This document shows positions 40,225-44,733 of a stretch of 64,000 nucleotides of DNA, in pieces. The position numbers and the translations under genes are program-made. Each line of letters opens with the position of its first letter. Position 1 is the stretch's first letter. Source of the DNA: an uncultured Gemmatimonadaceae bacterium. GTDB taxonomy: Bacteria > Gemmatimonadota > Gemmatimonadetes > Gemmatimonadales > Gemmatimonadaceae. The notes beneath the pieces were generated by a model. The model was not told where the DNA came from and did not search any database. It saw only the letters and a list, made by a program, of their open reading frames with translations. The stretch covers positions 832,001 to 896,000 of the forward strand of contig CAWFQK010000004.1 of the NCBI GenBank assembly GCA_963817955.1. The letters are read 5' to 3'.

Positions 40225-41105
40225 CGCTGTCCGCTCGCGTCGTGGCGCAGGCCAAGGTCAACCTGCTCCTTCGCGTTCTCGCACGTGAAACGAGCGGCTA
40301 TCACTCCATCGAAACGGTATTTCTACGTCTCGACCTCGGCGACGACGTTTGCGTTCGGATCGTGAACGGACACACGCTCGATTGTGCAGGCCCTGCAATG
40401 CCCGCCGCGGGGCTTGGGCCGGCCCAGCAGAACCTGGCCTATCGCGCCGCCGCGACATACGCCGAGGCCACGGGATGGCCCAGTGGATTCGCCATAGAGA
40501 TCGAGAAGCGAATTCCCGTTGGCGGAGGACTGGGCGGCGGCAGCGCTGACGCTGGAGCCGTGCTCCGGGCGCTCGACGCACTGGCGCCGAATCCGCTCGG
40601 CACGCGCCTCGTGGAGCTCGCAACCACGCTCGGTGCCGATGTGCCGTTCATGGCGACCGACAGTCCCATGGCACTCGCGTGGGGTCGTGGGGAACGCATG
40701 CTTCCGCTACGCGCCCTCGAGCCACGGGCCGCCGTTCTCATTATCCCCGATTTCGCGATCAATACCGCCGAGGCGTATGGGTGGCTCGCGGCGGATCGGG
40801 GGTCGTACGTGCCGGCAGCGACGGTCATTGCGCCGGAGGCACTCGATACATGGGAGTCGATGGCCGGTCTCGCCACCAACGAATTCGAGCGCGTCGTTGC
40901 GCGGCGAAGGCCGGTGATCGCCGAACTCGTCGACGAACTCGAGGCCGCGGGCGCGTGTGTGGCCATGATGAGCGGCTCCGGCTCGACGGTTTTCGGGATA
41001 TTCGACTGCTTCCCGGACGTGCCCGCGATCGCGCGCACTTCGAGTCACACTAAGGTCCTGACAGGAACGAGCGATCGAGTTGTAAGAGTGGTGTTGGATC
41101 GGTAG
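40221..41105 (+). CDS. ispE: 4-diphosphocytidyl-2-C-methyl-D-erythritol kinase
   Basis: AKVNL, GYH, KRIPVGGGLGGGSADA, GADVPF, MSGSGSTVF. Confidence 0.95.
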   Translation: MTLSARVVAQAKVNLLLRVLARETSGYHSIETVFLRLDLGDDVCVRIVNGHTLDCAGPAMPAAGLGPAQQNLAYRAAATYAEATGWPSGFAIEIEKRIPVGGGLGGGSADAGAVLRALDALAPNPLGTRLVELATTLGADVPFMATDSPMALAWGRGERMLPLRALEPRAAVLIIPDFAINTAEAYGWLAADRGSYVPAATVIAPEALDTWESMAGLATNEFERVVARRRPVIAELVDELEAAGACVAMMSGSGSTVFGIFDCFPDVPAIARTSSHTKVLTGTSDRVVRVVLDR

Positions 41106-41108
41106 CTT
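41080..41108 (+). promoter_or_regulatory. Candidate promoter for tRNA-Gln/prs, inside the 3' end of ispE
   Basis: TTGTAA-17 bp-TAGCTT, 11 nt before the tRNA. Confidence 0.5.
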
Positions 41109-41119
41109 TCAGGGCTTGC

Positions 41120-41190
41120 TGCCCCCTCGTCCAATGGCAGGACATCGGACTTTGGATCCGAGAATGGTGGTTCGAATCCACCGGGGGCAA
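41120..41190 (+). tRNA. tRNA-Gln(TTG)
   Basis: Acceptor TGCCCCC/GGGGGCA; anticodon arm TCGGA-CT TTG GA-TCCGA; GGTTCGAATCC; CCA not encoded. Confidence 0.97.
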
Positions 41191-41227
41191 CGTTCAACTC
41201 CTGCCTATCTCAGCAAGGCTTCGCATC

Positions 41228-42180
41228 ATGGATGGACTAGCGGTCCCGAGTCATGGCTTGAAGGTTTTGTCCGGCACTGCCAACCGTGCGCTTGCGGAGG
41301 AGATCGCCCGCCATCTCGGAGTCGACCTGTGCCGGGTCAATCTGGGTCGGTTCGCCGACGGGGAGATCTTGGTTCGCATCGACGAGAACGTTCGCGGCAA
41401 CGACGTGTTCATCGTGCAGCCCACGAACCCGCCGGCCGAGAACATCATGGAGCTCCTGCTCCTGATCGACGCGGCGCGCCGGGCCTCGGCGGCGCGAATC
41501 ACCTGCGTGATGCCGTACTACGGCTACGCCCGGCAGGACCGCAAGGACCAGCCACGCGTGGCGATCGGCGCCAAGCTCATGGCGAACATGATCAAGGCCG
41601 CTGGCGCGGATCGGGTGCTGGGGGTGGACTTCCACCAGCACCAGCTCCAGGGGTTCTTCGACGTACCCGTGGATCACCTGTATGCAATGCCGGTGTTCAC
41701 GGCGCACTATCGCAAGAAGCAGCTGCAGGATCTGGTGGTCGTCGCGCCCGATGTCGGTTCGGCGAAGATGGCGCGGGGGTTCGCGAAACGGCTGAACGGA
41801 TCGCTCGCGATCATCGACAAGCGCCGGCCTCAGCCGAACGTGTCGGAAGTGGTGAACGTGGTTGGTGAAGTCGAGGGACATGATTGTATCCTCGTCGACG
41901 ACATGATCGACACGGCCGGGACGGTGACGGAAGCGGCGCGGGCGCTGAAGGGACTGGGTGCCAAGGACATCTACGTCTGCGCGACGCACGCGCTGCTGTC
42001 GGGTCCCGCCGTGGAACGGTTGAACGAAGCGCCGATCAAGGAAGTCGCGGTGACGGACACGATCGCGATTCCCGAGGACCGGCGCCCGAAGAACTGTGTG
42101 TTCTGTCCGTCGGCGAGCTGCTGTCGAAAGCGATTCGCTTCACGCATAGCGAGCAGTCGGTGAGTTCGCTGTTCGATTGA
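41228..42180 (+). CDS. prs: Ribose-phosphate pyrophosphokinase; 1-nt frameshift near 42094
   Basis: FADGE, PYYGYARQDRK, VDDMIDTAGT; the conserved C-terminus VLSVGELLSKAIRFTHSEQSVSSLFD lies in the shifted frame. Confidence 0.95.
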
Positions 42181-42192
42181 AAGTCTGTTGGA

Positions 42193-42264
42193 CCTCGCGC
42201 AATTCTCATGGTAGGGAGGACGCAGCCTCCCGAGAGTAGACGGGATTGGCGCGAGGAGGCTGCG
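42193..42264 (+). ncRNA. Candidate L25 ribosomal leader with a 5S rRNA loop E mimic
   Basis: ATGGTA(42208-13)/GAGAGTA(42232-38) internal loop closed by GGGAGG/CCTCCC, on a basal helix CCTCGCGC-AATTC/GGATT-G-GCGCGAGG; lies directly upstream of rplY. Confidence 0.65.
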
Positions 42265-42295
42265 AAGTTTCTGTTATCATACTGGTATTTGCACA

Positions 42296-42952
42296 ATGGC
42301 ATCAGCATCACTGGACGCCACCGTCCGCGCCGACCGCGGCACGGGCGTCGCCCGCAAGATCCGCCAAGCCGGACAGGTTCCCGCCGTCATCTACGGCCAC
42401 GGACGCGAGCCGCAGTCGCTCACGATCAACGCACGCGAGACGAATCATCTGCTGTCGACCATCTCGGCGGCGAGCACCGTCGTCAATCTGAACGTCGACG
42501 GCAAGACGTGCCGCACCCTCATCCGCGAGATTCAGCGCCATCCGTTCAAGCGCCACCTGGTCCACGTCGATTTCCAGGAGCTCGTGGCTGGTGAGAAGGT
42601 AACGGTCAGCGTGCCGCTACGCTTCGTCGGCACGGCAGATGGCGTGCGGAACGGCGGCGGAGTGCTCGAAGAAACGATGCACAAGGTGCACATCAAGGTC
42701 GATCCGGCGCAGATGCCGGAGCACATCGATGTCGATGTCACCGATCTGACCATCGGCCACAGCCTTCACATTCGCAATCTTCCGCTGCCTGAAGGCATCT
42801 CGGTGCTCGACGATCCGAGTGCCACGGTGTGCGTCGTGACGGCGCCGAAGACGGTTGTGGAGACGCCGGTCCCGGGTGCCGAGGTCGAGCCGAGCACGGC
42901 CGAACCGGAGCTCATCCGCAAGCCGAAGCCTGAAGAGGGCGAGGCCAAGTAA
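42296..42952 (+). CDS. rplY: 50S ribosomal protein L25 / general stress protein Ctc
   Basis: GQVPAVIYGHG, IREIQRHP....HVDF, GGVLE, IGHSLHI. Confidence 0.96.
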   Translation: MASASLDATVRADRGTGVARKIRQAGQVPAVIYGHGREPQSLTINARETNHLLSTISAASTVVNLNVDGKTCRTLIREIQRHPFKRHLVHVDFQELVAGEKVTVSVPLRFVGTADGVRNGGGVLEETMHKVHIKVDPAQMPEHIDVDVTDLTIGHSLHIRNLPLPEGISVLDDPSATVCVVTAPKTVVETPVPGAEVEPSTAEPELIRKPKPEEGEAK

Positions 42953-43020
42953 CTGCGTCAGTGCTCCATTTCCTGTTCGGGCGGCGCCGAGCATCTCCCG
43001 CGGCACGCGACGACGAGCCG

Positions 43021-43602
43021 ATGAAAGTCATAGTGGGACTCGGCAACCCGGGCAAGGAATACGAGCGTACACGTCACAACGTCGGTTGGTGGGTCGTCGA
43101 TCACCTCGCCGACGTTTGGCATTTCGGCGGCTGGCGCAAGGACGGCGAAGCGTACGTGAGCAACGGCACCGTGGGAAACGTGAAGGTGAGGCTGGTCAAA
43201 CCGCTCACGTTCATGAATCTCAGCGGGGCTGTGCTCAGGCCATACCTGCGCCGGCCCTTCTGGGCCGCCGCTACCGATCTCATGGTCGTCGTCGATGACG
43301 TCGCGCTCCCACTGGGTCGTTATCGCTTTCGAGCCAAGGGGAGTGCCGGCGGGCACAATGGATTGAAGAGCATCGAGGGCGCTCTCAAATCGCAGGAGTA
43401 TGCACGCCTGCGGATCGGGATCGCGCCCGAGGACCCTTCGCGCCGGGGCCAACTGAAGGACTACGTGCTCGACGACTTCGGCAAGCGGGACGCACAGACC
43501 GTTCGCGACCTGCTTCCCGCGCTGACCGAGGCCGTGGCTCTCTGGCTCACGGCTGGCATCGTGCCGGTTATGAATCGATTTACTGGAGAGGGTGCGGAGT
43601 GA
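43021..43602 (+). CDS. pth: Peptidyl-tRNA hydrolase
   Basis: VGLGNPGKEYERTRHNVG, KPLTFMNLSG, GSAGGHNGLKS. Confidence 0.97.
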   Translation: MKVIVGLGNPGKEYERTRHNVGWWVVDHLADVWHFGGWRKDGEAYVSNGTVGNVKVRLVKPLTFMNLSGAVLRPYLRRPFWAAATDLMVVVDDVALPLGRYRFRAKGSAGGHNGLKSIEGALKSQEYARLRIGIAPEDPSRRGQLKDYVLDDFGKRDAQTVRDLLPALTEAVALWLTAGIVPVMNRFTGEGAE

Positions 43603-43631: not shown

Positions 43632-44733
43632 ATGCTCAGACTCGGAATTGTCGGTCTGCCGAACGTCGGCAAGTCGACGCTGTTCAATGCGCTCACGTCG
43701 GCGAATGTCCTCGCCGCGAACTATCCGTTCGCCACGAAGGATCCGAACGTCGGCCGGGTGAACGTGCCGGACGCACGGCTCGATGCGCTGGCCAAGGTCG
43801 TTCAACCACGTGGCGTCCTGCCGGCCGCCGTCGAATTCGTCGACATCGCGGGCTTGGTGAAGGGTGCGTCGCAGGGCGAAGGCCTGGGCAACCAGTTCTT
43901 GGCGAACATCCGTGAAACGGACGCCATCGTCCATGTCATCCGCGCCTTTGACGACGACGACGTGCTGCACGTGATGGGCGCCATCGATTCCGTGCGCGAT
44001 CGAGAGGTCATCGAATTCGAGCTCGCCCTGGCGGACCTGTCCGTCGTGGAGAAGCGGCTCGATCGCGCCAAGCGCGCGTCGAGGACCGGCGACAAGGACG
44101 CGCTGGCGGAGCTCGGCGCGCTCGAGCGCGCCTTCGCGCCGCTCCAGGAGGGCCGCGCTCTGTGGCATGCCGCGCTGTCGGCGGAGGACCGTGCCGTGCT
44201 CGCACCATTGTCGCTCCTCACCCTCAAGCCAATTCTCTACGCGGCGAATGTGACCGACGCCGAGTTGTCGGGCGACGAAGGCCCGCATCTCGAGCGCCTG
44301 CGCGAGGCAGTCGCGTCGAGCGGCGAGCCCGCCGAGGTCGTCCCCTTCTCCGCCAAGATCGAGGCGGAGCTGGCCGAGTTGCCCGCCGGAGGACCGCAAT
44401 GCATTTCTCGAGTCACTCGGGTTGGAGTCGGCGGGACTCGACCGCCTCATTCGCGCCGGCTATCACCTGCTCGGTCTGCAGACCTACTTCACCGCCGGGG
44501 AGCAGGAGGTCCGCGCATGGACGATCCATCGCGGGGACACTGCGCCGCAGGCGGCGGGGGTGATCCATACCGACTTCGAGCGCGGCTTCATTCGCGCCGA
44601 GACGGTGGGCTATGACGACTTCATCACCAACGGCGGCTGGAAAGGCGCGCGGGAAAAAGGCGCCGTGCGGTCGGAGGGCAAAGAGTACGTGGTGCAGGAC
44701 GGCGACGTGATGCTCTTCCGCTTCAACGTCTGA
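43632..44733 (+). CDS. ychF: Redox-regulated ATPase YchF; 1-nt insertion near 44383
   Basis: [26 protein letters not shown]-terminal [13 protein letters not shown]...[13 protein letters not shown] in the shifted frame. Confidence 0.95.

Follow-up and report, generated by a model that had tools for sequence, protein, structure and literature searches.

Given that the 115-nucleotide spacer between prs and rplY contains a hairpin (42193-42256, read from the sequence of the window) whose internal loop is spelled almost exactly like loop E of 5S rRNA, this locus raises the question of what such a copy does ahead of the gene for ribosomal protein L25. The window is the whole 64,000-nucleotide stretch of an uncultured Gemmatimonadaceae genome that was analysed, and its gene content includes ispE, a tRNA gene (41120-41190), prs, rplY, pth and ychF. 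The features of the spacer and of its flanking genes are collected in Table 1. Every segment of the hairpin lies where a sequence-only reading of this DNA had drawn it, and the hairpin is present in the minimum-free-energy fold computed with ViennaRNA. Fold energy was dropped as support for the hairpin, which is ordinary against shuffles (z = -1.0), as are the outer stems when the 3' flank is shuffled (median z = -1.2). Pairing between the flanks separates cognate from non-cognate combinations weakly (-7.7 versus -5.6 kcal/mol), because G+C-rich flanks pair promiscuously.

Table 1. Features of the prs-rplY region; positions are those of the window.
Feature	Position	Strand	Remarks
prs (ribose-phosphate pyrophosphokinase)	41228..42180	+	Upstream gene; frame broken, overlapping ORFs 41228-42163 and 41884-42180
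P1, 5' strand CCTCGCGC (CCUCGCGC)	42193..42200	+	8 bp with 42249-42256
P2, 5' strand AAUUC + UC	42201..42207	+	AATTC 42201-05, TC 42206-07; pairs with 42243-47 and 42239-40
Loop-E-like internal loop, 5' strand AUGGUA	42208..42213	+	Matches 5S A73-A78 (E. coli numbering)
P3, 5' strand GGGAGG	42214..42219	+	In place of 5S helix IV
Apical hexaloop ACGCAG	42220..42225	+	Near-invariant
P3, 3' strand CCUCCC	42226..42231	+	Covariation
Loop-E-like internal loop, 3' strand GAGAGUA	42232..42238	+	Identical to 5S G98-A104
P2, 3' strand GA	42239..42240	+	
CG bulge	42241..42242	+	
P2, 3' strand GGAUU	42243..42247	+	
G bulge	42248	+	
P1, 3' strand GCGCGAGG	42249..42256	+	
Conserved box GGCUGCG	42258..42264	+	Complementary to the hexaloop and the first two bases of the P3 3' strand
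A/U-rich spacer	42265..42295	+	Weak SD-like GGUA at 42284-87
rplY, long-form bL25 (CTC/TL5 type), 218 aa	42296..42952	+	Pfam matches

The reading frames around the leader call for some comment. Both prs (at ~42080-42100) and ychF (43632-44733) are split into two overlapping frames, and relatives have one extra base in prs near 42093-42100; these breaks look like single-base assembly errors, and both lie outside the leader. The C-terminal end of prs, ...SEQSVSSLFD followed by the stop, is common to the window and its relatives. The listed pth frame (42961-43602) starts at a GTG at 42961, while the N-terminal sequence usual for the protein, MKVIVGLGNPG, is found 19 codons further on, at ~43018, so that the rplY-pth spacer is probably ~65 nucleotides. 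Directly 5' of P1 (42186-42192), a word GUUGGA or GUAGGA is semi-conserved in the genus of the window; it may represent a vestigial promoter or a processing site, or belong to the fold.

Bacterial loop E consists of seven stacked non-Watson-Crick pairs, GAUGGUA opposite GAGAGUA, between two helices. In the leader the internal loop places AUGGUA opposite GAGAGUA, which amounts to 13 of the 14 loop E nucleotides. This match, claimed from the sequence at the outset, was borne out against the 5S rRNA of the same genome, which reads GAUGGUA/GAGAGUA at loop E, and against the RNA of the E. coli L25-5S complex (PDB 1DFU), for which the same loop E is listed (PMC1920249). A comparison with the loop E motif at the level of sequence finds in the leader six out of seven positions, together with the helices on either side; the G72 partner is not kept. 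The signature is also rare: ATGGTA followed by GAGAGTA after 12-30 nucleotides matches three places in the whole 4.53-Mb genome, namely both 5S genes and the rplY leader, and the reversed control pattern matches one. The leader is nevertheless not a 5S gene or a fragment of a 5S pseudogene, as the leader region has no match to RF00001: the 5S covariance model gives it no score, whereas the genuine 5S genes of this genome reach 97 bits.

The likeness has limits in detail. The 5S loop E/helix IV site bound by L25 or TL5 presents AUGGUA opposite GAGAGUA with a regular closing helix, just as the leader does, but where 5S continues into helix IV and loop D the leader has P3, of 6 bp, and a hexaloop. 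The pair closing the loop varies among leaders (G-C, G-U, A-U or C-G) and is C-G in the genome's own 5S rRNA, and the position of 5S G72 may be C, U, A or G. The sequence-only reading had allowed that the G missing at this position might be one of the assembly's single-base deletions. This explanation proved wrong: in 109 distinct leaders AUGGUA is preceded by C (78 leaders), U (24), A (4) or G (3), so that the lack of the G is the conserved state. Small shares of the stretch are contained in four public DNA runs, and one contig from them, at depth 2, reaches the hairpin; this independent contig spans 42101-42251, covering the 5' two-thirds of the hairpin, and carries no indel, including at 42207/8, where the reads were to be checked for a G.

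We located rplY in 39 of 41 related genomes. All 23 loci of the same genus, chosen through the protein alone, carry the pattern ATGGTA-N6-ACGCAG-N6-GAGAGT 86-93 nucleotides ahead of the start codon, and AUGGUA is invariant among them. The motif is absent from the five readable rplY loci of the order's two other families, where the spacers are short; two further loci ended short of the upstream sequence. Trained on the 23 same-genus leaders, a covariance model matches 19 of the 151 family genomes, in 8 of 77 genera (a tally that, like that of the type 3 leader described below, includes the three unpublished genomes G072, G172 and G047, on which none of the conclusions depends), leaving 69 Gemmatimonadaceae genera with no match to the model. 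The same model matches none of 119 genomes from the other families of the phylum, and the literal AUGGUA...GAGAGUA signature occurs at none of the 30 Bacteroidota rplY loci sampled. The absence of the element from most genera of the family implies that the control it would provide is dispensable or replaceable.

Broader pattern scans gave a consistent picture. In a scan of one genome per species, 104 of at least 119 matches have a fully paired P3, a CUGC box and an open frame (an ATG start at +68 to +100), and the remaining 15 among the matches listed have four P3 pairs or fewer. Fully paired matches checked by title belong to Gemmatimonadaceae, Gemmatimonadales, Gemmatimonadota or an unspecified 'bacterium'; among the 80 titles listed, the non-Gemmatimonad ones that could be assigned to loci are all low-pair matches. 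For metagenomes the pattern fixed only P3, the hexaloop and the box, leaving the loop E letters free, and still 97 of 106 distinct matches carry AUGGUA with GAGAGU[A/U] (GAGAGUA in 85, GAGAGUU in 12); the other nine are unrelated on either side. The unpaired letters are therefore invariant while the stems change. The hexaloop reads ACGCAG in 105 of the 109 leaders and AUGCAG in four. Each genome has one copy of the element, always in sense orientation, and its distribution is best read as confined to a subclade of the Gemmatimonadaceae.

The stems covary. Across 99 distinct sequences P3 pairs completely (100%) and four of its six pairs are changed on both sides, a count that is biased because these sequences were kept for a fully paired P3; none of 500 shuffles reaches the observed score, and windows slid along the sequence are 37-59% paired. 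The 23 loci identified through the protein, which are free of this bias, give the same picture, with three of six P3 pairs changed on both sides. P1 and P2 form in every same-genus leader from sequences that differ and are still complementary, but MAFFT loses their register, and column-wise covariation of P1 and P2 was consequently dropped; in the window's own group the formal count covers P3 only. In a sister group (43 leaders, with P3 reading GGGCGG), unguided RNAalifold returned a three-way junction of P1, an inserted hairpin P0, P2 and P3, in which both loop E strands are unpaired and compensatory changes affect 9 of the 20 pairs. The P0 hairpin of this GGGCGG subgroup (alignment columns 22-36) is very often GCUGC-N-GCAGC, the words of the box and the apical loop. 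Inspection of the relatives, as the sequence-only reading had suggested, thus bears out its structured rplY leader with a loop E copy: the loop letters are conserved (23/23 and 97/97) and P3 covaries.

The position of the element ties it to rplY. From AUGGUA to the rplY AUG the distance is 78-93 nucleotides (n=38), whereas from the prs stop to AUGGUA it is 20-219 (n=36); the fixed distance on one side and the variable distance on the other indicate that the element belongs to rplY rather than to prs. The spread on the prs side is due to tandem repeats: in relatives (for example L011, L019, L171, L179, L184 and L187) the gap that separates the prs stop from the leader holds variable arrays with units of 6-9 nucleotides (AACCAGT, GCAGGT and GTCTGAT among them), often as inverted blocks that give long hairpins. 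The hairpin ends ~36-40 nucleotides upstream of the AUG and the box stands ~32 nucleotides from it. As had been remarked, rplY has no close Shine-Dalgarno (SD) sequence: neither GGAG nor AGGA occurs upstream, and only a weak GGUA lies at -12 to -9, a site at which other genera have AGGA or AAGG. No sigma-70-like promoter was found on the + strand between 41000 and 43100, and no RNA run is listed as containing this stretch. The product of rplY is a two-domain bL25 by its Pfam matches (Ribosomal_L25p, 3.7e-27; Ribosomal_TL5_C, 6.1e-29); it also matches solved bL25 chains including 1feu, the T. thermophilus TL5 entry, and its N-terminal 5S-binding domain is intact. In sum, a conserved structured RNA lies directly upstream of an r-protein gene, in the same orientation, and resembles the rRNA binding site of that protein, a frequent but not obligatory feature of r-protein leaders.

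A further conserved feature links the apical loop to the sequence that follows the hairpin. The sequence-only reading had pointed to a perfect 10-bp complementarity, and CGCAGCCTCC (42221-30) is indeed the exact reverse complement of GGAGGCTGCG (42255-64), which is followed by AAGTTTCTGTT. At its core GCAG faces CUGC. All 109 leaders offer at least five contiguous pairs, against 0.7% of control windows, and in all of them CUGC lies 49-54 nucleotides after the start of AUGGUA. We looked for an alternative partner for the box and rejected the idea, as the region has no second GCAG at a conserved position and the sole universal one is in the apical loop. Since the complementarity is universal, the spacing of the box is fixed and no other GCAG is conserved, chance is an unlikely source. 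Every paired position is invariant, so that covariation is lacking and nothing proves that the pairing forms. We believe nonetheless that loop and box do make contact and that this connects the hairpin with the sequence downstream. In the window's group the contact would be incompatible with P1, because only 2-3 nucleotides separate P1 from the box, an argument from helix lengths rather than from a model; P1 may alternate with a loop/box pseudoknot. The box was also considered as a regulator of access to the ribosome-binding site and rejected in that role: sequestering it lowers the opening energy of the site by a median of 1.1 kcal/mol, and sequestering the next 8 nucleotides, by 2.1, and no conserved pairing between box and ribosome-binding site was found.

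We were interested in the rplY upstream regions of the 40 Gemmatimonadaceae genomes that the covariance model missed. None has the motif of the window's leader (type 1); 10 have spacers of 40 nucleotides or less, five a second type of leader and four a third. Type 2 is a hairpin GGGCCGG...CCGGGMACCC, that is GGG-CCGG-loop-CCGG-G(A/C)A-CCC, enclosed by an outer stem that covaries, ~60-110 nucleotides before rplY (L173, L174, L176, L179 and L189 by regular expression, with variants at L171, L177 and L183); it has no match in Rfam. In type 3 the hairpin contains a 6 x 6 internal loop, GAGAGG/AGGGUA, and is present in single copy ~45-50 nucleotides upstream of rplY. Its pattern occurs in 11 of 151 family genomes from five genera (L361-L371, for example L361:1491-1574; also L172, L343, L344 and L352), and the reversed control pattern gives two matches.

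The 3' strand of type 3, GAGGGUA, is one letter away from the GAGAGUA of loop E, and its basal half can form a set of G.A, A.U and G.G pairs, which is half of loop E. Its apical loop changes together with a segment next to the SD-like word (AAGGA or AAGAG): AAUCCGG goes with CCGGAUU or CCGGAUA, UUUCCGG with CCGGAAA and AUUCCGG with CCGGAA, in a small sample of 11 genomes and around a CCGG core that is self-complementary. A contact from loop to tail is plausibly a design common to types 1 and 3, and its covariation in type 3 raises the odds that the type 1 contact is real. More speculatively, leaders that sense L25 may have been assembled repeatedly within the Gemmatimonadaceae out of parts of 5S loop E, with type 1 keeping the half on the helix IV side by the apical stem and type 3 the G.A/A.U/G.G half by the basal stem, with both wiring the apical loop downstream and passing L25 binding to the start site via a pseudoknot or a P1/pseudoknot switch; we hold this scenario to be rather less probable than its negation. 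If true, it would provide the first regulatory RNA for a two-domain L25, and an example from nature in which modular mimicry of rRNA is linked with conformational change.

What, then, does the leader do? The reading that we favour, with a probability of roughly 0.7, is that a cis-regulatory leader RNA is encoded between prs and rplY and acts as an operator through which long-form bL25 controls its own gene, by loop E mimicry. The internal loop and closing helix of the P1-P2-internal loop-P3 hairpin would serve as a copy of the 5S loop E/helix IV site, and L25 in excess over free 5S rRNA would bind this copy. The bound hairpin, ahead of a start codon with a weak SD, would sit at the 5' edge of the ribosome landing site and compete with the 30S subunit, reducing translation of rplY. 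In this manner L25 can probably switch off its own synthesis. Against the operator count the G72-equivalent position, which is not kept, the ~40 nucleotides between the hairpin and the AUG with no conserved pairing found between box and ribosome-binding site, the unexceptional fold energies given above and the 69 of 77 family genera that have no model match. A hairpin with another purpose, such as a prs 3' end, an mRNA-stability element or a loop E module for another factor, is improbable. Loop-E-like modules do recur across many RNAs, and in the window the hairpin directly follows prs. Yet it is the distance to rplY that is fixed and not that to prs, a terminator or stabiliser has no need of 13 unpaired letters that never vary and that agree with the L25 site throughout, and the signature recurs elsewhere in the genome only in 5S.

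How binding would be relayed to rplY is less certain. The sequence-only reading had L25 choose between the loop E hairpin and the mutually exclusive 10-bp helix (42221-30 with 42255-64), which with its U-rich tail would act as a terminator or attenuator. The complementarity behind this two-state switch stands, as a universal core of at least 5 bp that shows no covariation; the length of 10 bp is a peculiarity of this genome. In the window the helix is perfect and costs just 2.9 kcal/mol to force, and RNAalifold picks it on the raw alignment of 23 sequences; one close relative appears from the aligned leaders to have the same 10 letters. Beyond this genome the helix shrinks to 7-8 bp in the window's group and 5 bp elsewhere, and the penalty for forcing it has a median of 6.8 kcal/mol. 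The terminator half fared worse: six or more U within the 14 nucleotides after the box occur in 8 of 109 leaders, no terminator-like site was found on the + strand from 41000 to 43100, and the leader lacks the combination of G+C-rich stem and conserved U tract that defines an intrinsic terminator or attenuator. With invariant pairs that give no sign of formation, a helix that is shorter elsewhere and costly to form, a rare U tail and no detectable terminator, the attenuator reading fails, and we consider it very improbable. An L25 operator in which P1 alternates with the pseudoknot, L25 favouring one form and the form setting access to the start site, is a more serious, if still doubtful, proposal. 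The apical loop and box would need an open P1 to pair, given the short linker, and P1 is real in that it covaries; loop and box are invariant, complementary in all 109 leaders and held at a fixed spacing, the only universal GCAG of the region is that of the loop, and the unrelated type 3 leaders show loop and tail changing together. Against the switch, the type 1 contact shows no covariation, the four leaders with a C-to-U change in the loop lack consistent changes in the box, the steric argument is drawn from helix lengths, and the folding test gives the box no special effect on the ribosome-binding site.

The L20 rpmI-rplT operator and the S15 rpsO operator combine rRNA mimicry with a long-range pseudoknot. 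The leader described here likewise has an rRNA-imitating site for the protein and a loop that could pair with a segment near the start; the proteins and folds differ, and the loop/tail contact of the window, conserved as it is, is putative.

The closest functional parallel is the enterobacterial rplY leader. It too lies upstream of rplY as an irregular hairpin ahead of a ribosome-binding site with a weak SD; the hairpin is said not to resemble loop E by Aseev, Bylinkina and Boni 2015 (PMC4408793), and it serves a short one-domain L25, whereas the gene of the window encodes the two-domain form and the hairpin ahead of it carries a literal loop E copy. E. coli L25 represses its own translation in vivo, for which this hairpin is needed, and strengthening the SD abolishes the control (PMC4408793, PMC10931766); this weak-SD hairpin leader parallels the repression proposed here. 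Section 3.8 of a 2024 review limits the known features of L25 leaders to species with a short L25 (PMC10931766), and a survey re-found the enterobacterial leader in Enterobacteria only (PMC7247131). The enterobacterial leader is likewise the only L25 leader described in the full-text literature covered, which leaves subscription journals mostly outside, in keeping with the earlier remark that no leader of this form was known for this lineage. A scan with Rfam 15 (E up to 10; 41000-43500 and 42185-42300) returned the tRNA and chance matches only, with no match to an L25-leader family. The locus holds a real, conserved and apparently undescribed r-protein leader.

L25 autoregulation has so far been known only for the short enterobacterial protein, acting on an RNA with no evident likeness to 5S. 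If the operator reading is true, the widespread two-domain L25 would also be self-regulated, by plain mimicry. The leader would then represent a predicted natural minimal L25 site of ~35 nucleotides, in which A73-A78 and G98-U103 are invariant and G72 is free, and the invariant complementarity of loop and box poses a clear question about its role. With several unrelated rplY leaders in one bacterial family, the Gemmatimonadaceae are a good place to study leader turnover.
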